32,000 nt of DNA from Candidatus Nanogingivalaceae bacterium (GTDB taxonomy: Bacteria; Patescibacteriota; Saccharimonadia; Saccharimonadales; Saccharimonadaceae): positions 30,001-62,000 of the forward strand of contig CP072208.2 of the NCBI GenBank assembly GCA_015257795.3, written 5' to 3'. Position numbers and translations under genes: made by a program. The first letter of the stretch is position 1; the number at the start of each line of letters is the position of its first letter. The notes under the pieces were generated by a model. That model made no database searches. It was not told where the DNA came from and worked only from the letters and a program-made list of their open reading frames with translations. Below are positions 3,180-15,127 of this stretch, in pieces.

Positions 3180-4490
3180 TTATTTTTTAAAGATTTCTTT
3201 TGAAATTTCACGAACAATTTCGGTGTCGTTCCAAGGGGTTTTTTCGCCATCGATTATACGATAAACTTCATGGCCTAGGCCAGTAATTAATACGGTGTCG
3301 CCTTTTCCTGCAATCTGGAGGGCCTTTCGAATTGCTTCTTTTCGATCTGGAATTTCTTGGATATTTGCTGGTATTTTTCCATTCTTCTTAGAAAATCCTA
3401 CAATGACTTCTTCGCGAATTTGTTTTGCATCTTCGGTGTAGTTTTCTTCATCTGTTACGATAATTCGGTCAGCTAAATCTTGAGCGATTTTTCCCATAAT
3501 TGGGCGTTTCTCGCGATCGCGATCACCACAAGCACCGAAAACCAGAATAGTTCGATTTTTAGTGATTTTCTTTGAAGTTTGAAGAAGTTTTTCAAGTGCA
3601 TCAGGTGTGTGAGCATAATCTACCACAACTTCGAAAGGAAGATCTGATGTTGCATATTGGAAGCGCCCAGAAATTCCTTCAAGGTTAGCAATTCCTTCTT
3701 GAATATCTTGTAGTGAAATTCCTAAAAGATATGCACCAGCTGCTGCCGCAGTCATGTTGTAAACATTAAATTCTCCAGGCAAATTTGTAGCAATTTCAAG
3801 TGCTACGTTGTTGTCAATTCGCAATTTAGCTTCACTACCTTTTTTGTAAAGTTTAAAGCTTTTAATTTTAACTTCTGCTGAATCGCTTTCACCATAGGTT
3901 ATTTTTTGCTCGCTAGCTTCAAACTTATTAAAGTAATCAAAATATTTATCGTCGGTATTTAGGACGATAAAGCGTGGTTGCATTTCGAAAAGTTTAGCTT
4001 TTGCTGCAGCGTAATTTTCCATTGTTTTATGGTAATCAAGGTGATCTTGAGTAAGGTTGGTCATGATTGCCATTTCAATTGGTACACCCGCAAATTTATA
4101 TTGGTCAAGCGCGTGTGAAGTCGCTTCAATTAGTGCAAATTCAACATCGGCTTTTTTTGCATCGTGAAAGAATTTTTGTAATTTCGAAACTGTTGCGGTT
4201 GTAGAATTGGTATCATTGACTGTTTGAACGCCTGCGATTTCGATATTTGCAGTTGAAAACATTGCTGTTTTGTAGCCAGCTTCTTTTAAAATCTCATTAA
4301 GAAAATTAACGGTAGTTGTTTTACCATTTGTACCAGTCACGGCAATCACTCGTAAATCACGAGCAGGGTTTCCATAACGCGCCGCAACTACTTTTGCGCG
4401 AGATTTTCGATAAGTTCTTTCAAGCTCAACAAGTGCCGATTTTGGCAAAACTTTTCGAGCGGTTTTAGCTAAAGTATTCTTAATGCTCAT
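3180..4490 (-). CDS. murE: UDP-N-acetylmuramoyl-tripeptide synthetase (MurE-type Mur ligase)
   Basis: 436 aa. P-loop VIAVTGTNGKTTT. DYAHTPDALEKLL and GACGDRDREKRP motifs are typical of MurE. Short N-terminal domain. Confidence 0.85.
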   Translation of the reverse strand: MSIKNTLAKTARKVLPKSALVELERTYRKSRAKVVAARYGNPARDLRVIAVTGTNGKTTTVNFLNEILKEAGYKTAMFSTANIEIAGVQTVNDTNSTTATVSKLQKFFHDAKKADVEFALIEATSHALDQYKFAGVPIEMAIMTNLTQDHLDYHKTMENYAAAKAKLFEMQPRFIVLNTDDKYFDYFNKFEASEQKITYGESDSAEVKIKSFKLYKKGSEAKLRIDNNVALEIATNLPGEFNVYNMTAAAAGAYLLGISLQDIQEGIANLEGISGRFQYATSDLPFEVVVDYAHTPDALEKLLQTSKKITKNRTILVFGACGDRDREKRPIMGKIAQDLADRIIVTDEENYTEDAKQIREEVIVGFSKKNGKIPANIQEIPDRKEAIRKALQIAGKGDTVLITGLGHEVYRIIDGEKTPWNDTEIVREISKEIFKK

Positions 4491-4936: not shown

Positions 4937-5338
4937 ATGCAAGAAAAATCAATTTTTACACGAATTATCGAGGGTGAAATTCCCTGTCATAAGGTTTACG
5001 AAGACGAAAAAGTTTTTGCAATGCTTGATATCGAGCCACTTTCGGACGGCCATGTTTTAGTTTTTCCAAAAAAGCAAGTTGATTTGCTTTGGGATTTAGA
5101 GCAGGATGACTATGATTATTTGTGGCAAATTGCTAAAAAGATTGCTAAAAAAATTCAAGCTGAAATGAAACCAATTCGTGTGGGTGTTGTGGTTGAAGGC
5201 TTTGGCGTGCCACATGCGCACATTCACCTTGTGCCACTTTATGACCAAAATGTTTTGCAACTTCATCACGGCTACCCCGCTGAGACTTCACCCGAAGAAC
5301 TTGCAAAAATTGCTGCAAAGATCACTTTCGAAAAATAA
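4937..5338 (+). CDS. HIT-family (histidine triad) nucleotide hydrolase
   Basis: 133 aa. IFTRIIEGEIP N-terminus and histidine triad HAHIHLVP. AAGGAA SD. Confidence 0.9.
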   Translation: MQEKSIFTRIIEGEIPCHKVYEDEKVFAMLDIEPLSDGHVLVFPKKQVDLLWDLEQDDYDYLWQIAKKIAKKIQAEMKPIRVGVVVEGFGVPHAHIHLVPLYDQNVLQLHHGYPAETSPEELAKIAAKITFEK

Positions 5339-5345
5339 AAAATAA

Positions 5346-5365
5346 CCCCACAATTTGTGGGGTTT
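5346..5365. terminator. bidirectional intrinsic terminator
   Basis: CCCCACAATTTGTGGGG hairpin (5346-5362) flanked by an A-run and a T-run. Lies between the convergent HIT gene and the 5398 gene. Confidence 0.6.
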
Positions 5366-5397
5366 AAAAAAGTGAGATGTTAGAGAATTAAGCTGCG

Positions 5398-5700
5398 TTA
5401 AAGCATAACAATACCTTCTTGTGTCCAAAAATCAATTTCTTCTTTTGTTGTTTGACCATATCGAGGATCGTGCTTAGATACAATATGCATTGAAAAGTTA
5501 CCGGTCTTATTTTTAAATAAGTAGTTTCGTAATTGACGTTTGTATGTTTGCAAGAAGTCATGTCGTTTTTGTTCTGAAACCCCAGCAAAATTAATTCCTT
5601 CCACTACTTTGCGTGTAGGATTTTCTGATGAGTAAAGCTCCAAAACTACCCAGCCGTTATCTTTTTCAACAAACTCTGTGTAAAATTTAGCTTGAGCCAT
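5398..5700 (-). CDS. hypothetical protein (100 aa)
   Basis: ATG 5700 with GGAG 7 nt upstream (MAQAKFYTEFVEKDNGWVVLELY...). No family recognised. Confidence 0.6.
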   Translation of the reverse strand: MAQAKFYTEFVEKDNGWVVLELYSSENPTRKVVEGINFAGVSEQKRHDFLQTYKRQLRNYLFKNKTGNFSMHIVSKHDPRYGQTTKEEIDFWTQEGIVML

Positions 5701-5709
5701 ATGGAATCT

Positions 5710-5735
5710 CCGCGCTTAAAGCCCGCTTGGCTATA
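5710..5735 (-). promoter_or_regulatory. 26-nt conserved element, copy 2 (TATAGCCaaGCGGGCTTTAAgCGCGG)
   Basis: 23/26 identical to 25503-25528. Lies directly 5' of the SD of the 5398 gene. Imperfect palindrome TATAGCC-N5-GGCTTTA. Confidence 0.45.
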
Positions 5736-5864
5736 GATTTTTTCGAAACTTTCAGCTTCGAAAGCTGAGCTTAATTTTTTAAACTCAATTTTCGAAACTG
5801 AAAAATCGATCAATAGCCAATTTCTCACTTTTGAAATGTTCGCTTGTTTCACACAAGCTTTTAA

Positions 5865-5893
5865 ATTATATCATAAAAAAATAAAAAAGTCAA
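5865..5893 (-). promoter_or_regulatory. promoter of the 5398 gene (about 158-nt 5' UTR)
   Basis: Minus sense: AACTATTGACT with TTGACT (5893-5888), 17 nt, TATAAT (5870-5865). Confidence 0.5.
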
Positions 5894-9687: not shown

Positions 9688-9716
9688 ATTATATCAAAAA
9701 AATGGTTTTTTGTCAA
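9688..9716 (-). promoter_or_regulatory. pilin promoter (leaderless configuration)
   Basis: Minus sense: TTGACA (9716-9711), 17 nt, TATAAT (9693-9688), then 9 nt to ATG 9678. Confidence 0.55.
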
Positions 9717-9760: not shown

Positions 9761-9853
9761 GGAGGATTACCCAAGTGGCTGAAGGGGACGGTTTGCTAAA
9801 TCGTTAGTCTGGGGAGACCTGGAGCGGGAGTTCGAATCTCCCATCCTCCGCCA
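9761..9853 (+). tRNA. tRNA-Ser(GCU), class II, CCA encoded
   Basis: GGAGGATTACCCAAGTGGCTGAAGGGGACGGTTTGCTAAATCGTTAGTCTGGGGAGACCTGGAGCGGGAGTTCGAATCTCCCATCCTCCGCCA. Anticodon stem ACGGT/ATCGT, loop TTGCTAA. Long variable arm. Confidence 0.93.
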
Positions 9854-9903: not shown

Positions 9904-12030
9904 TTATTGCTTGACACCTTTCATTGTAAGATTCAACCTTCCCTTTTCGTCAATTTTATCTAGTTTTACCCAAATTTCTTGATCTTGGCTTAAAACATCC
10001 GTAACTTTTTCGGTTCGCTTTTCAGACATTTGTGAAATGTGAAGCATGCCATCAATTCCAGGAAGAATATTTACGAAAGCACCAAAGTCTTTAATTGAAA
10101 CAACTTTTCCGCGATAGATTTTGCCAACTTCAGGCTCTTCAACCAATGATTTAATCCAGTTCAGTGCTTTTTCAATCTGTTCAGCATTCGAGCTTGCGAT
10201 TGTAATCAAGCCGTCTTCCTTGATATCAACTTCAGCACCAGTTTCAGATGTAATCTTATTGATTGTTTCACCACCCTTACCAATGATTGCACCAATTTTT
10301 TCAGGGTTAATTTTAATCTTTTCAATCCGTGGTGCATATGGTGAAAGGTCTTTTTTAGGCTCAGAAATTACACTTAACATGTGGCGCAAAATATGCTCGC
10401 GACCTTTTCGTGAAGTTAAGATTGCTTTTTCAAGAACAGAAACTGGCAAACCATGAACTTTCATATCCATTTGGAGCGCTGTAATTCCGTTTTTCGAACC
10501 TGTACATTTGAAGTCCATATCGCCAGCAAAGTCTTCGGCGTCGGCGATATCGCTTAGAATGTAAGGTGTTTCACCATCCATCATTAATCCCATTGCGATT
10601 CCTGAAACGGGATTTTTCAAAGGTACGCCGGCGCTCATTAAAGCCATACAACTTGAACAAGTTGCTGCCATTGAAGTTGAACCATTTTGGCTCATAATTT
10701 CAGTCACGCTACGGATTGCATAAGGAAAATCTTCAACACTCGGTAAAACTGCTTCCAAAGCTCGTTGCGCCAAATAACCGTGGCCAATTTCACGCCGACC
10801 AGGGCTTCCTAGGCGTCGAGGTTCACCAACAGTATATCCGGGTGCATTGTAGTGGTGCATATATCGGCGTTCAATTTCGTTGAACTCCATTGTGTCAACC
10901 AATTGCGAATATGAAAGTGGTGCAAGAGTTACGATATTCATTGCTTGAGTCACGCCACGAGTGAAGAGGCTCGAACCGTGTGCTCGTGGCAAGAAGTCGA
11001 TTTCACTCGAAAGTGGTCGAATTTCATCTAACTCACGACCATCTGGTCGCTCGCCGTCTTCAATAATCCCCTTTCGAACTGCTTTATGAACCGCCAAAGT
11101 GAATGCTTCATCATATTCTTTTCGAATTTCTTCATACGCTTCTTCACCGAATTTTTCAAGCATTTCTGCGTGGAACTTCTCGCGAATCTCGGCAATATTT
11201 TGATTATACTTTGGATAAGCCTCACGAATTTTCGAATCGAATTTTCCGTCTGTCCACTCTTCCACTTCTTTTAAAATTTCTTCATTAGGCAAAACTAATT
11301 CGAAAGCGCGCTCCTCAAAATAACCTGCTTCGATATATTTTGCGCGTAATTCATTTTGGAGTTTAATTGCTGGTTGGAAATTTTCGTAAGCCCAAGCTAG
11401 CCCTGCGATAATTTCTTCTTCAGGAACTTCGTTTGCTCCAGCTTCAACCATTGTGATGCCGCTTTCGATTCCGGCAACAACCAAATCGAGCGGAGATTTT
11501 TCGCGTTCTTCAGGATTTAAGAAAGCTTTAAATTCTCCGTTAATTTTACCAATCCGAAGACCAGCAACTGGGCCATCAAACGGAACTCCAGCAAGATGCA
11601 ACGCGCTCGAAGCTGCAATCATCGCAATCATATCTGGTCGAAATTCTGGATCGGCTGAAAGAACAGTTGTGACAACTTGAACTTCTTCGCGATAACCTTT
11701 TGGAAACAAAGGCCGAATTGGGCGATCGATTAACCGACCAATCAAAACGGCGTCATCGCTTGGGCGACCTTCGCGCTTAATAAATCTTGAGCCAGAAATT
11801 CGTCCGCTCGCGTACCACTTCTCTTCGTAATCAATTGAAAGTGGGAAATAATCTAGCGCCACTGGTTTAGAGCCTAATTGAACGGTTCCCAAAACAACAG
11901 CTTCGCCGTATTTTACGATAACGCTTGAAGTTGAACGAAAGCCAACTTTGCCAACTTCTAGTGTTAATTTTCGACCCAAGAAATCAGTACTAACCGAAAT
12001 TAATTTCTTCCCGGTTGGATTTATGATCAT
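9904..12030 (-). CDS. pnp: polyribonucleotide nucleotidyltransferase (PNPase)
   Basis: Two RNase PH domains, KH (IGKGGETINKI) and S1 (GKVVSIKDFGAFVNILPGIDGMLHISQ). Start taken at ATG 12030 (MIINPTGKK...) with AGGAG 5 nt upstream. The track's extra 23 codons belong to the leader. Confidence 0.93.
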   Translation of the reverse strand: MIINPTGKKLISVSTDFLGRKLTLEVGKVGFRSTSSVIVKYGEAVVLGTVQLGSKPVALDYFPLSIDYEEKWYASGRISGSRFIKREGRPSDDAVLIGRLIDRPIRPLFPKGYREEVQVVTTVLSADPEFRPDMIAMIAASSALHLAGVPFDGPVAGLRIGKINGEFKAFLNPEEREKSPLDLVVAGIESGITMVEAGANEVPEEEIIAGLAWAYENFQPAIKLQNELRAKYIEAGYFEERAFELVLPNEEILKEVEEWTDGKFDSKIREAYPKYNQNIAEIREKFHAEMLEKFGEEAYEEIRKEYDEAFTLAVHKAVRKGIIEDGERPDGRELDEIRPLSSEIDFLPRAHGSSLFTRGVTQAMNIVTLAPLSYSQLVDTMEFNEIERRYMHHYNAPGYTVGEPRRLGSPGRREIGHGYLAQRALEAVLPSVEDFPYAIRSVTEIMSQNGSTSMAATCSSCMALMSAGVPLKNPVSGIAMGLMMDGETPYILSDIADAEDFAGDMDFKCTGSKNGITALQMDMKVHGLPVSVLEKAILTSRKGREHILRHMLSVISEPKKDLSPYAPRIEKIKINPEKIGAIIGKGGETINKITSETGAEVDIKEDGLITIASSNAEQIEKALNWIKSLVEEPEVGKIYRGKVVSIKDFGAFVNILPGIDGMLHISQMSEKRTEKVTDVLSQDQEIWVKLDKIDEKGRLNLTMKGVKQ

Positions 12031-12132
12031 ATCTTCTCCTTCTGCCAAATGAGTTGCAGGAATCTTCTTCGAAAAGCTTTCGAAAATAATTTCTACCACA
12101 CATTTGGCGTTAATTTTACCCTTTTATTATAG
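12025..12132 (-). repeat. promoter/leader cassette copy A (upstream of pnp)
   Basis: 108 nt with 5 mismatches to 12614-12721. Holds TATAAT (12131-12126; the -35 TTGCTA lies at 12154-12149). Leader stem GCCAAATG (12108-12101) pairs with CATTTGGC (12051-12044). Also contains an inner TTCGAAA/TTTCGAA hairpin, AGGAG and the ATG. Confidence 0.85.
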
Positions 12133-12259
12133 CATTTTCGAGTAAATTTAGCAAAATATATTGATTGATTTTATTGGAAATTAACCCAAGTTTTAGACTC
12201 TGAATATTATAATGGAAGGTATAAAGAATTTGTCTATAATGGAAAAATTTTATAGCAAC

Positions 12260-12285
12260 AAAGATCCCCGAATTGGGGGGTCTTT
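12260..12285 (-). terminator. intrinsic terminator after the ASCH gene
   Basis: AAAGATCCCC / GGGGGTCTTT 10-bp stem (one G-U). In minus sense it is followed by TTTGTTG. Confidence 0.6.
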
Positions 12286-12289
12286 AATT

Positions 12290-12619
12290 TTATAATTCTA
12301 CTCTAATTCCTAGAACACTAAACTTTTCTTGTTTTTCTGGTGTATAAAATTCACTAAGAACACCTAGAAGTTCTTCTTTTGCCATTGTTCTTTCGGCGAG
12401 AATTTCAATTCCGAAATCATTGAAAAGAGTTTTAAAGTCCTGATACTTTAATAATCCAATAACTTTTGCTGTAAATTTATCTTTTTTATTGCTAAACTCA
12501 ATTGAATCGCCGATTTTTATTTGTTGTCGCTTCTCATCATTTAATCTTAATTCAATTCTTTTTGTTCCATTTTTAATAAAGTCAAAATATTTATCTTGTA
12601 AGTTCATTTTATGGATCAT
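12290..12619 (-). CDS. ASCH-domain (PUA-like, predicted RNA-binding) protein
   Basis: 109 aa from ATG 12619 (MIHKMNLQDKYFDFIKNGTKRIELRLNDEKRQQIKIGDSIEF...). This is the ASCH pattern YFdxIxxGxKxxExRlxDxKrxxixxGD. AGGAG 5 nt upstream. Confidence 0.7.
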   Translation of the reverse strand: MIHKMNLQDKYFDFIKNGTKRIELRLNDEKRQQIKIGDSIEFSNKKDKFTAKVIGLLKYQDFKTLFNDFGIEILAERTMAKEELLGVLSEFYTPEKQEKFSVLGIRVEL

Positions 12620-12721
12620 ATCTTCTCCTTCTGCCAAATGAGTTGCAGGAATTCTCCTCGAAAATCTTTCGAAAATAATTTCTACCACACATTTGGCGTT
12701 AATTTTACTCTTTTATTATAG
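12614..12721 (-). repeat. promoter/leader cassette copy B (upstream of the ASCH gene)
   Basis: Offset +589 from copy A. TATAAT (12720-12715; the -35 TTGCGA lies at 12743-12738). Stem arms at 12697-12690 and 12640-12633. Same SD and ATG ATC start. Confidence 0.85.
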
Positions 12722-12745
12722 TATTTTTAGCTAAAAATCGCAAAA

Positions 12746-12773
12746 TTAAATAGCCCTTGATTGGGCTATTTAA
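12746..12773 (-). terminator. hairpin/terminator after the Spherulin-4-like gene
   Basis: TTAAATAGCCC-TTGATT-GGGCTATTTAA 11-bp stem immediately after the stop codon. Confidence 0.5.
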
Positions 12774-13907
12774 TTAAATTTTGTGTCGAATAATCCAAGT
12801 TAAGATTATTGGTAATGCTGCAATTCCAGCGGCAATTAAAATTGAGAAATCTTTAGTGCTTTTACGTGAACCAGTGTTTGGTGCCTCAACCTTTGAATCT
12901 GTCTTTTTAGCTTCGGCATTATTTGGATTCTTAGGTGTTTTTGGATCTTTTGGATCAGCTGGTTTAGCTGGCTCTACTGGTTTGTTTTCACTTGGTTGCG
13001 TTGGTTTATTCTCTGGGTCTTTCTTGTTTTTAACTTTTAGGTTAAATACATCTTCGCATCCTTCTGGCAATTCCACAGGAGTACCAACTTCAGGTTGAGT
13101 TGCTGGTAGATTCATTGATTCGATAAGTTTATCGAAATTATCTGAAGGATCTCGGTAATAATTTGAAGTTTTTGATGTAAAGTAAATGAATCCTGCATTT
13201 CGTTCGCGGCTTAGCTCTAGAACTTTTTGTTGCTCTGCTTCTGAACGAATTCCATAAACGATGTGATAAATCTTTTTCGAATTTTTGCTATCTTTTTCGA
13301 AATTAGAAATATTTTTCCAGCGGTTAGAATCTTTGTCTAGATATTTTTCAACATCTGTTTCAGCAGTTGTAAAGATATCTGCGTATTTTCCGATTTCTTC
13401 ATCTTGAAGGTAAATTCCAGGGTTTTGAATAACTAGAGTTCCAGGATATTTTACCTTAATATAGTTGTAAGTGTTTGCAACGTAACAACGTTGAGCGGGT
13501 GTACCAGAAGCCATCTCATCGATAAAGATCGCTTTTGTGTCCGGTGCGATTTTAAACCAAGTATCGATGTCTTTTGCGAGCTCTTTAATGTCACGATTTT
13601 GATAAGTTTGGGCAACATATCCAACCTTATTAAAACCACGGTTGCTTAATTCTGTCATCGCTTTTTGATAAGATGCATCTAGCGGATCAGCTGGTCCGTT
13701 ATTGGGGTTGACAATCGTGTATGGAATTTTTGTGCTTCCGTGTTTATAGATTGCTTCCCATAGCGGTGCATTTTTGCTAGGGTATTTATACATCGGTATG
13801 ATTATGGATTGAGTTGATGTTGCAGCAGAAGCTTTTAGCCCAAAGAGCACGCTCAAACCAACAATCCCTAAAATTGATGTTAGTATTGCTATTTTATTTT
13901 TGTTCAT
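12774..13907 (-). CDS. secreted Spherulin-4 family (GH135/Sph3-like) protein with Pro-rich linker and APNTG sorting-signal-like tail
   Basis: Signal peptide (ILTSILGIVGLSVLFGLKASA). IIIPMYKYPSKNAPLWEAI...YTIVNPNNGPADPLDASYQKAM...GFNKVGYVAQTYQNRD matches the Spherulin-4 pattern. P/K-rich linker, then APNTG, a TM segment and an RHKI tail. AGGAGG SD. Confidence 0.7.
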   Translation of the reverse strand: MNKNKIAILTSILGIVGLSVLFGLKASAATSTQSIIIPMYKYPSKNAPLWEAIYKHGSTKIPYTIVNPNNGPADPLDASYQKAMTELSNRGFNKVGYVAQTYQNRDIKELAKDIDTWFKIAPDTKAIFIDEMASGTPAQRCYVANTYNYIKVKYPGTLVIQNPGIYLQDEEIGKYADIFTTAETDVEKYLDKDSNRWKNISNFEKDSKNSKKIYHIVYGIRSEAEQQKVLELSRERNAGFIYFTSKTSNYYRDPSDNFDKLIESMNLPATQPEVGTPVELPEGCEDVFNLKVKNKKDPENKPTQPSENKPVEPAKPADPKDPKTPKNPNNAEAKKTDSKVEAPNTGSRKSTKDFSILIAAGIAALPIILTWIIRHKI

Positions 13908-14022: not shown

Positions 14023-15036
14023 TTAAAGTGTTTGGCGATATTTATTTTCAACCAAGATTTTTATATCACATGCATATAACCCAGAATTCGAAAGCGGGTT
14101 TAATTCAACAATTCCCGGTTTACCGTTAATTATTGCTGCATCCAACACAAAATCTTTAGTTTTAAAAACCGGCGTAATTTCTTTAGCGGTTTTTCGAGCA
14201 AATTCAAGTAATTGATTTCGAATCTTAGGTTGAAATTTAACTTCGGTTTGATTGCGAATTTCTTGCAGTTGCGGATCAAACTTTTCAGTGTTTTGCAACC
14301 AAGTAAAATCTTCAATGTTACCAGCCGAAGTTAACACTTCCCCGTTCACACAAAAACAACGCATTTCATAACGAATATCTGCAAAATCTTGAATGAATAA
14401 ATCATTTTCGTGCCAGGCATTCATTATTCTTACCAGCATTTCGTGAGTTGGCTTTTGAGATAAATCAATTTCGAAAATTCCCGCTTTTGGATTTATCATA
14501 ATTTTAACCATTACTTTTTTATGGTTTTGGCCGAAAATTTCAAGCGTTTCTAGAAAATTTTCGCTATAACAATGAATGAAATCTCGATTAAAATATTTTT
14601 GAACTTGCGGCTTTAAATCGTATCGATTAACGTCATAGTTTGGATGTTTTTCGATTCCAAATCGGGGTAAGTTCAATTTCGAATAATCAAAATTTAAGAT
14701 TTTTCCGGTTTTATCAAATACAACCGTATCTTGTTTTGAGCCAAGATCATAAAAAACAAAAATTGGATTTTGCGCAACCTCGAGGCCAAATTTTATTCGG
14801 CCAATCATTTCTAGCCAAAGCTCGGTGTCTTGCTTTAAGTGAGTGTGTAAATTATTTACATAATTCAAAATGCTGTGCAAATCTTTTGGATTACAATTTT
14901 GTGTTTCCTGCTTGGGAAATTCAAATTTTTGGGCAAGTTTTTTGAACTCTGTTTTCAATGAATCCGGAACGCGCTTTTCGAAATCTTCGTTCGAAATTTC
15001 AAACACATAATTACTGATAATTAAATCGTAGGCCAT
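14023..15036 (-). CDS. ATP-grasp-fold protein (R2K-clade-like), function unknown
   Basis: 337 aa from ATG 15036 (MAYDLIISNY...) with GGAGG SD. C-terminal half has ATP-grasp-like strands LFIQDFADIRYEMRCFCVNGEVLTSAGN and DFVLDAAIINGKPGIVELNPLSNSGLY. Confidence 0.5.
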   Translation of the reverse strand: MAYDLIISNYVFEISNEDFEKRVPDSLKTEFKKLAQKFEFPKQETQNCNPKDLHSILNYVNNLHTHLKQDTELWLEMIGRIKFGLEVAQNPIFVFYDLGSKQDTVVFDKTGKILNFDYSKLNLPRFGIEKHPNYDVNRYDLKPQVQKYFNRDFIHCYSENFLETLEIFGQNHKKVMVKIMINPKAGIFEIDLSQKPTHEMLVRIMNAWHENDLFIQDFADIRYEMRCFCVNGEVLTSAGNIEDFTWLQNTEKFDPQLQEIRNQTEVKFQPKIRNQLLEFARKTAKEITPVFKTKDFVLDAAIINGKPGIVELNPLSNSGLYACDIKILVENKYRQTL

Positions 15037-15127
15037 TTTAATACCTCCAAAAAATAAAAAGTTCAACAAAAAGTCTAGTTTTAATTATAATATATTTTTA
15101 TCTTAAGTTAAACTGAAAATACACAAC

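Follow-up and report, generated by a model that had tools for sequence, protein, structure and literature searches.

A covarying 5' leader of pnp in Saccharibacteria and its duplicate in front of an ASCH-domain gene

Why should the gene of a small ASCH-domain protein be preceded by almost the same promoter and untranslated leader as pnp, the gene of polynucleotide phosphorylase (PNPase)? The question is posed by a stretch of 32,000 nucleotides from a Candidatus Nanogingivalaceae bacterium (GenBank assembly GCA_015257795.3, contig CP072208.2, positions 30,001 to 62,000), hereafter called the window and numbered from its first letter, whose minus strand carries, in this order, rpsO, an ATP-grasp-like gene, a gene of the Spherulin4 family, the ASCH gene and pnp. 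A preliminary description had noticed the repeated cassette and read it as placing an RNA-binding protein under the same post-transcriptional control as PNPase. The observation is confirmed in full, whereas the interpretation is half right: the cassette, made up of promoter, structured leader and Shine-Dalgarno sequence (SD), is real, and in this strain two genes are driven by it; its hairpin is a genuine, conserved and covarying structured RNA, the native and ancestral 5' leader of pnp in Saccharibacteria; the sharing with the ASCH gene is a matter of duplication and gene conversion, is found in a minority of alleles within one genus, and is dispensable. The parts of both copies are given below, with bit scores that refer to the covariance model R1 introduced further on.

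12154-12126, minus strand: sigma-70-type promoter of copy A (pnp), -35 TTGCTA, 17-nucleotide spacer with TG, -10 TATAAT
12044-12108, minus strand: leader hairpin of copy A, 27 bp, four 1x1 internal loops and a 3-nucleotide loop; R1 match at 12040-12112, 70.3 bits
12028-12040, minus strand: SD and start of copy A, AGGAG at 12040-12036, 5-nucleotide spacer, pnp ATG at 12030-12028
12030-9904, minus strand: pnp, PNPase of 708 amino acids from this ATG
12743-12715, minus strand: promoter of copy B (ASCH), -35 TTGCGA, 17-nucleotide spacer, -10 TATAAT
12633-12697, minus strand: leader hairpin of copy B, the same 27-bp fold as in copy A; R1 match at 12629-12701, 64.6 bits
12617-12629, minus strand: SD and start of copy B, AGGAG at 12629-12625, 5-nucleotide spacer, ASCH ATG at 12619-12617
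12619-12290, minus strand: ASCH-domain gene, 109 amino acids, GxKxxExR motif as NGTKRIELR

Compared without gaps, 12025-12132 and 12614-12721 agree over 108 nucleotides with exactly five mismatches (12064, 12065, 12068, 12076 and 12120); a repeat finder extends the match to 133 nucleotides at 90% identity and a spacing of 589, and weaker similarity runs on through the -35 boxes (123 of 141 positions identical between 12020-12160 and 12609-12749). Two long sub-patterns occur within the window in these two copies only, and shuffled sequences lead one to expect none. Each copy folds into a single imperfect hairpin, with minimum free energies of -28.1 (A) and -27.3 kcal/mol (B) and z-scores against dinucleotide shuffles of -4.0 and -4.9, respectively. 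The hairpins are closed by the arms GCCAAATG and CATTTGGC (12101-12108 with 12044-12051 in copy A, 12690-12697 with 12633-12640 in copy B), and the 3' arm is followed by AGA, AGGAG, five nucleotides and ATG. All five differences leave the fold intact, including those inside the hairpin (12653, 12654, 12657 and 12665 in copy B). The preliminary description had noted that they spare the closing stem and the SD, but its placement of both 12064 and 12065 in an unpaired stretch holds for 12065 only, which lies in a 1x1 internal loop; in the minimum free energy fold 12064 is paired, as U.G in the pnp copy and as U-A in the ASCH copy.

Could the second copy be a product of assembly? The exact ASCH protein is found on short contigs from many independent assemblies (SPAdes, MEGAHIT and others), and independent contigs show collinearity with the window, at an identity of 96-100%. 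Seven independent metagenome contigs, coming from different assemblers, each have two complete leader copies by R1 matches, and the two-copy state recurs in L012 and L104/L105 (L-numbers denote the retrieved loci of relatives, P-numbers public proteins); an assembly duplication, for which a check had been called for, is thereby ruled out.

What, then, is the leader? A search with the PNPase protein yielded 80 species-level loci, nearly all labelled Saccharibacteria, in which the PNPases align from residue 1-3 on. In the nine closest species the leader is found by BLAST directly upstream of pnp, and eight of them show the simple order valS, rpsO, terminator, promoter, leader, pnp; the rpsO stop and the pnp ATG of L011 and L013-L019 are about 176 nucleotides apart, with terminator, promoter and leader in between. 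The leaders of more distant relatives are beyond recognition by BLAST, yet a long hairpin precedes every pnp. They share the core 5'-GYGRURGA ... CYGYWAC-3', whose pairs (G-C, U-A, G.U, R-Y, U.G, R-Y, G-C, A x C) are almost invariant and rich in wobbles, unlike the flanking stems, which covary freely. In copy A the core GUGGUAG (12099-12093) pairs with CUGCAAC (12059-12053), and in this genus the first core wobble (G.U) is replaced by a G x A mismatch.

For 32 diverse leaders, RNAalifold gave a consensus of 21 pairs with compensatory changes in 17, and from this alignment the covariance model R1 was built. With 68 distinct sequences on the R1 alignment, 87.6% of the cells are paired, as against 39-48% in controls with slid partners, the covariation score is 0.61 as against at most 0.21 in the slid controls, and changes on both sides are seen in 18 of the 21 pairs. 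Each of the 66 distinct leaders folds into one hairpin without branches, 21-37 bp in length. A -10-like hexamer (at least five of six positions) lies 9-29 nucleotides upstream of the core in 63 of 63 distinct upstream regions, a count made without a shuffled control, and the SD begins 3-6 nucleotides past the hairpin in most loci (3 in the window) and 20 to about 45 nucleotides past it in several clades. A reading of GUGAUGA...CUGA-like core strings as a K-turn or box C/D element was rejected, as the positions 17/107 and 19/105 covary as Watson-Crick pairs.

That the leader is non-coding follows from in-frame stops, which lie at most 96 nucleotides upstream of the ATG in 64 of 74 distinct pnp leaders; close relatives have indels of one nucleotide in its loop, and its variation tracks base pairs, not codons. 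A translated extension from an upstream GTG was rejected because of these stops and indels. Public gene calls for pnp and ASCH often start at a spurious GTG, TTG or ATG inside the leader (P0002-P0055), giving a pnp product of 731 and ASCH products of 123-132 amino acids (the GTGs in the window stand at 12099 and 12688); independent gene calls begin the ASCH product of 109 amino acids at the ATG 12619-12617. The leader accounts for the spurious N-terminal extensions (MVEIIFE..., MWRKIPAIYL...) of both proteins, the first of which had already been recognised in the preliminary description as leader read from an in-frame GTG, and from such an extension the leader allele can be told at a glance.

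In Rfam 15, searched at the gathering score with the window and ten relatives, no family matches the leader, and nothing relevant appeared at E<=10 in the leader regions of the window and its relatives. We found no earlier description of a pnp leader of Saccharibacteria in the literature, and the main text of the largest survey reporting TM7 motifs has no pnp element. For a new RNA family the leader makes a good candidate, its covariation being strong enough to propose one. To our knowledge, few cis-regulatory RNAs have been described in Saccharibacteria and other Patescibacteria, and this one sits on the gene of a central RNA-decay enzyme.

Does the motif belong to pnp, or is it a signal placed before many genes? 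In the roughly 1 Mb of relatives searched with R1, one match stands directly upstream of pnp in 79 of the 80 loci, a strong outcome for the conservation of the stems in relatives that the preliminary description had proposed to check (with covariation in the 18 of 21 pairs given above); the only extra matches stand before ASCH, in the window and in L012. A metagenome-wide scan with a motif of Nanosynbacter type, AAGTGATAGAGA-N28-58-CCCTGTTACT, returned 76 loci: 69 lie directly before pnp (two of them with a frameshifted pnp), four are cut by contig ends, and three are weak (R1 17-22 bits), with no gene after them and in about the number expected by chance; of the assessable matches, 69 of 72 therefore precede pnp. 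Since the remainder is cut off or chance-like, the motif is a dedicated pnp leader and not a regulon signal or repeat. A dispersed repeat, such as a miniature inverted-repeat transposable element (MITE) or a repetitive extragenic palindrome (REP), was rejected, there being two copies in the window and one per locus in 79 loci; an integron-attC-like element or site-specific insertion of a cassette was set aside, as the element sits at pnp in genomes without the cassette.

How did a second copy come to stand before the ASCH gene? The ASCH protein matches Pfam PF04266 (E 3.9e-12, 47.2 bits versus a cut-off of 21.2, residues 5-108), its nearest solved structures are PH0355 and PF0455 (PDB), and a near-identical protein is labelled Candidatus Nanogingivalaceae at NCBI. 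Read from the translation, the GxKxxExR octapeptide with its catalytic Lys and Glu is present as NGTKRIELR; this motif (GKER) marks ASCH proteins reported to deacetylate N4-acetylcytidine (ac4C) in tRNA and nucleosides (bioRxiv 10.64898/2026.02.27.708502). Judged by this motif, the protein is likely an ac4C deacetylase, and a functional link to RNA turnover is plausible. The ratio of non-synonymous to synonymous divergence (dN/dS) of ASCH is 0.07-0.14, a sign of purifying selection in all the comparisons made.

Among the 80 pnp loci, ASCH adjoins pnp in L012 only. Homologues of 86-100% identity all come from this genus, and in every retrieved context they stand between rpsO and pnp; the cargo upstream of them varies (none, a gene of 125 amino acids, or the ATP-grasp and Spherulin4 genes), and so does the spacer downstream, which sometimes holds a convergent acetyltransferase gene. 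Homologues of about 70% identity sit in unrelated places, one of them beside an ASCH-acetyltransferase fusion on the opposite strand, and R1 found no match at the loci of these homologues; the leader copy of ASCH is confined to this genus. The window and L012 have in common the junction ATGAT(C/T)-CATAAAATG as well as the spacer's right end, which points to a single origin. The idea that the MIHKM N-terminus of ASCH stems from pnp codons was mostly rejected, as distant homologues already begin with MTTHQM or MTIHEM; only the second codon (ATC/ATT, versus ACC in the decayed alleles described below) follows the pnp copy. The surroundings of the two copies in the window are as follows.

15475-15173, minus strand: rpsO (ribosomal protein S15), which in relatives without inserts directly precedes leader and pnp
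15069-14023, minus strand: ATP-grasp-like gene
13907-12774, minus strand: Spherulin4-family gene
12744-12775, minus strand: terminator hairpin belonging to the Spherulin4-family gene upstream, with a T tail that reaches into the -35 box of copy B
12260-12285, minus strand: G+C-rich hairpin 3' of the ASCH stop, a palindrome listed on the plus strand and readable on the minus strand with a weak U tail; probably a terminator separating the ASCH transcript from the pnp transcript
12158-12289, minus strand: spacer of 132 nucleotides between ASCH and copy A, in whose place relatives have a convergent acetyltransferase gene; the right ends of this spacer and of the longer L012 insert are homologous

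ASCH is often followed by a convergent acetyltransferase gene of the GNAT type (L186 1864-2664, L188 687-1487 and L095 8488-9312, all on the minus strand), L095-L098 have an ASCH-acetyltransferase fusion, and a remnant of the acetyltransferase is seen in L012 at 5300-5870, where the window retains the 132-nucleotide spacer only. It looks as though ASCH and acetyltransferase had entered the interval between rpsO and pnp as one unit. This interval is an insertion hotspot across Saccharibacteria, ranging from about 150 nucleotides to more than 5 kb (L011-L090; large examples are L021 1462-6001, L036 697-6001 and L058 5570-6001). It also holds distant Spherulin4 homologues (34% identity) in L036, L042, L043, L049, L050, L053, L055 and L057. 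The MDR-NUDIX RNA motif (RF02918) scores above its gathering score upstream of pnp in L059 (4864-4924, minus strand), L060 (4254-4313, minus strand, and 4369-4429, plus strand) and L089 (5716-5776, minus strand); in L059 and L060 it lies inside the rpsO-pnp interval, the pair in L060 in opposite orientation.

What has kept the two copies so alike? In its transcribed leader, the ASCH copy of each genome bears the pnp-leader variants of that same genome: copies A and B of the window and of L104 read GCCAAAUG...GAAGAUAUGAUC, both copies of L012 read GCUGAAUG...GAAAAUAUGAUU, and in L104 the two are identical from the region of the predicted transcription start site through the ATG. The promoter spacers, where 9 of about 25 positions distinguish copy B from copy A, cluster across genomes by copy type and not by genome (the window has its B-type spacer in common with L091, L104 and L182). 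In L186 the shared tract extends further upstream and so has a different end. As the copies share genome-specific states while the promoter spacers group by copy type, this concerted evolution indicates repeated gene conversion from the pnp copy to the ASCH copy, and the near-identity of the copies in the window would result from the pnp copy repeatedly overwriting the transcribed part of the other. The ASCH segment has in addition a mosaic history, seen over 12290-13907 of the window: leader B, ASCH and spacer of L002 match the window at 100% identity and its Spherulin4 and ATP-grasp genes at about 95%, whereas in L091 the pattern is reversed, with flanks of 96-100% and an ASCH gene of 93% identity, which indicates that the segment was exchanged among strains by recombination.

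Does the ASCH gene need the hairpin at all? In L091-L094 and L182-L185 the synteny is that of the window and the flanks are 96-100% identical to it, but the copy upstream of ASCH has lost 26 nucleotides, comprising part of the core and most of the apical hairpin, and shows, in the 3' basal arm, four transitions without compensation in the 5' arm. R1 gives no match to these copies, even at E<=10; the -35 and -10 boxes, AGGAG and ATG are all kept. The remnant differs from copy B of the window at about 11 of 79 aligned sites, the pnp copies of decayed strain and window at 2 of about 121, and between the two allele types ASCH has a synonymous divergence (dS) of 0.25 at a dN/dS of 0.14; set beside this dS, the remnant evolves roughly neutrally. 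Using the N-terminus of the gene call as a proxy for the allele (MWRKIPAIYL.../MTHKM for decayed, MVEIIFE.../MIHKM for intact), which held in two of two further proteins, we counted about 500 decayed versus about 60 intact contigs. Because the sister strains lose the hairpin but not the promoter, the SD or the ASCH gene, itself under purifying selection, this gene needs the promoter and ribosome-binding site of the duplicated segment, and the hairpin is optional. The proposal of a meaningful ASCH/PNPase regulon is thus not borne out: the motif is otherwise confined to pnp, the ASCH copy to one genus, and the commonest sister strains have lost the hairpin. In this strain, shared post-transcriptional control of both genes is plausible, and any factor acting on the hairpin of pnp should reach the ASCH mRNA too, but such control is neither conserved nor required. 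Strains of one species with the same ASCH gene behind an intact or a hairpin-less leader amount to a natural experiment, and oral metatranscriptomes or cultivable Saccharibacteria could reveal the effect of the hairpin without any engineering.

The best explanation, which we consider probable though far from certain, combines a pnp-native leader, acted upon in the manner of RNase III and PNPase, with a duplication towards ASCH and subsequent conversion. The pnp control unit would consist of a sigma-70-type promoter just past the rpsO terminator, with its predicted transcription start site, a long imperfect hairpin and the SD; a double-strand-specific nuclease, putatively RNase III, or PNPase itself would act on the duplex, and the presumed direction of regulation would be a lower stability or translation of the pnp mRNA. 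The ASCH gene would have entered between rpsO and pnp in one genus, originally together with the convergent acetyltransferase, a copy of about 139 bp with promoter, leader, SD and ATG would have come to lie on its upstream side, and conversion would since have renewed the transcribed part of that copy. The feedback role of the leader, taken by itself, is a tentative proposal on which we stand close to undecided; it is favoured because position, order of parts and a duplex of at least two turns match the leaders of Escherichia coli and Streptomyces coelicolor.

Several points weigh against this explanation. The near-invariant, wobble-rich core suggests recognition by a sequence-specific protein, and RNase III of E. 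coli does not require sequence-specific recognition; as a generic double-strand nuclease explains neither the invariant core nor the short distance to the SD seen in most clades, there is room for a sequence-specific binder, be it the KH/S1 domains of PNPase (RNase_PH, KH and S1 domains are on record for the orthologue in L091), S15 or another protein. A search with an E. coli RNase III query found no rnc match in 1.2 Mb, which comprise the neighbourhoods of pnp and ASCH only and make this result uninformative. The intact ASCH copy, moreover, is found in at least four lineages (the window, L012, L104/105 and L186-189) with substitutions that all preserve the structure; selection may act on the ASCH hairpin there, conversion and selection predicting the same pattern, and the intact state may have come first or the decayed state may have come first and been repaired.

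If the leader had been recruited because an RNA-modifying or RNA-binding ASCH protein must track PNPase, with the hairpin kept by selection, one would understand the near-identity of the leaders and the structure-neutrality of all five differences, the intact copies in several lineages, and the appearance of the GKER octapeptide of the reported ac4C deacetylases beside an RNA-degrading enzyme. The slow change of leader B (window and L012 differ at about 9 of 105 sites, while ASCH has a dS of 0.50) would fit too, but conversion from a constrained pnp copy explains it equally well. We hold such a selected regulon to be rather unlikely, given that the commonest alleles keep a purifying-selected ASCH gene, promoter and SD without the hairpin, that distant ASCH homologues live elsewhere without a leader match, and that neither the 1 Mb of relatives nor the metagenome scan contains another gene with the motif. 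A blocking of ribosome loading at the SD by a sequence-specific binder other than RNase III and PNPase, such as S15 from the adjacent rpsO or some further factor, is less probable still. It would account for the core with its G.U and U.G wobbles and A x C mismatch amid freely covarying flanks, for a hairpin ending 3-6 nucleotides ahead of the SD in most loci and, in the case of S15, for the ancestral position immediately downstream of rpsO. It fits poorly with the 20-45 nucleotides between hairpin and SD in several clades. As for S15 itself, its known operators lie in the 5' untranslated region (UTR) of rpsO and combine a G.U/G-C motif with a pseudoknot or three-way junction, whereas this element is a plain hairpin downstream of rpsO, has G x A for the first wobble in this genus and matches no S15 family of Rfam. 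The core bears a loose resemblance to helix 22 of 16S rRNA of E. coli and Bacillus subtilis.

The hairpin might also merely stabilise the pnp mRNA, as a passive barrier at its 5' end against processing and 5'-end-dependent decay and without any feedback. A position near the predicted 5' end (with the -10 box 9-29 nucleotides upstream of the core) and an SD that is mostly unpaired in the full leader (mean pairing 0.23) would agree with this. Removal of the 5' strand might in turn occlude the SD, whose mean pairing is 0.50 in the 3' half alone, in a comparison made without a proper control. We nevertheless find a passive barrier very unlikely: an invariant core sequence would not be needed for it, protective stem-loops usually lie nearer to the 5' end than the 12-17 nucleotides by which the predicted start (inferred from the -10 position) precedes the stem in the window, and the restriction to pnp throughout the phylum speaks for a pnp-specific role. 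Next to no weight remains for an artefact or a non-regulatory element, that is, an assembly duplication, a mobile repeat of the MITE or REP kind, or a translated GTG extension. It is true that ASCH contigs are short, with ends that often fall close to the second copy, and that GTG-initiated frames are open in the window; against this stand the seven contigs, L012 and L104/L105 with both complete copies, the lack of further copies in the window, in the 1 Mb of relatives and outside pnp in metagenomes, and the stops, one-nucleotide indels and base-pair-wise variation of the leaders. More speculative, and given little credence by us, is a variant in which the invariant core is an operator for a specific protein (PNPase through KH/S1, or another factor) in a new type of PNPase feedback peculiar to Saccharibacteria, into which the intact lineages wire the likely ac4C deacetylase; if true, RNA decay would be coupled to the recycling of modified nucleosides in organisms living on salvaged nucleotides.

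Some observations concern the remaining genes of the locus. The gene at 14023-15069 (minus strand, 337/348 amino acids), an insertion after rpsO, matches ATP-grasp domains of the R2K clade below the Pfam cut-off only (E about 1e-3) and has no match in NCBIfam. Beyond pnp, a perfect consensus promoter (9688-9716, minus strand; TTGACA-17-TATAAT with an extended -10 TG), the top promoter match of a 6-kb scan, precedes a small gene resembling pilins of type IV secretion systems (PF18895, 9208-9687). Between this gene and pnp lies a tRNA gene at 9761-9850 (plus strand), and in L091-L093 an open reading frame of 163 amino acids (L091 10853-11344), which is present neither in L094 nor in the window.

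How does the leader compare with what is known? Leaders that bind S15 (Rfam RF00114 and relatives) share with it the neighbourhood of the rpsO operon, and a helix with G.U that is recognised by a protein is conceivable in both; those leaders, however, are pseudoknots or three-way junctions upstream of rpsO, whereas the plain hairpin described here always abuts pnp, with rpsO about 3 kb upstream in the window. Duplicated promoter or 5' UTR segments kept alike by intragenomic gene conversion are a general phenomenon. As in such cases, two non-coding segments, here 589 bp apart, share genome-specific substitutions, while outside the tract they group by copy; unlike in them, the tract is a structured regulatory leader, and the hairpin of the recipient was lost in sister strains.

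The closest parallel is offered by pnp itself. In E. coli a long stem-loop in the pnp leader, located past the rpsO terminator and the P2 promoter, is cleaved by RNase III, which leads to PNPase-dependent decay and repression of the pnp mRNA (PMC5029454). The analogy drawn in the preliminary description with this leader ('R') holds for the layout, i.e. rpsO terminator, pnp-proximal promoter, long imperfect stem-loop in the 5' UTR and pnp, and for a duplex of sufficient length for RNase III (21 bp or more in 66 of 66 leaders, 27 bp in the window). It does not extend to homology with the E. coli leader or the SraG locus, none being detectable in sequence or by Rfam; no antisense gene of the SraG kind was identified at the pnp leader of Saccharibacteria, the core there is strongly conserved and wobble-rich, and in this strain the element stands on a second gene as well. 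In S. coelicolor, a phylum far from Proteobacteria, intergenic promoters likewise precede a hairpin just upstream of pnp, which RNase III (AbsB) cleaves (PMC5872136); the sequence is unrelated, and cleavage has been shown by experiment there, while for the leader of Saccharibacteria it is a prediction. The theme of a hairpin between rpsO and pnp, known from Proteobacteria and Actinobacteria, is thereby extended to a third, deeply separate lineage, and by analogy this suggests that PNPase feedback through a leader duplex is either ancient or has been reinvented repeatedly.

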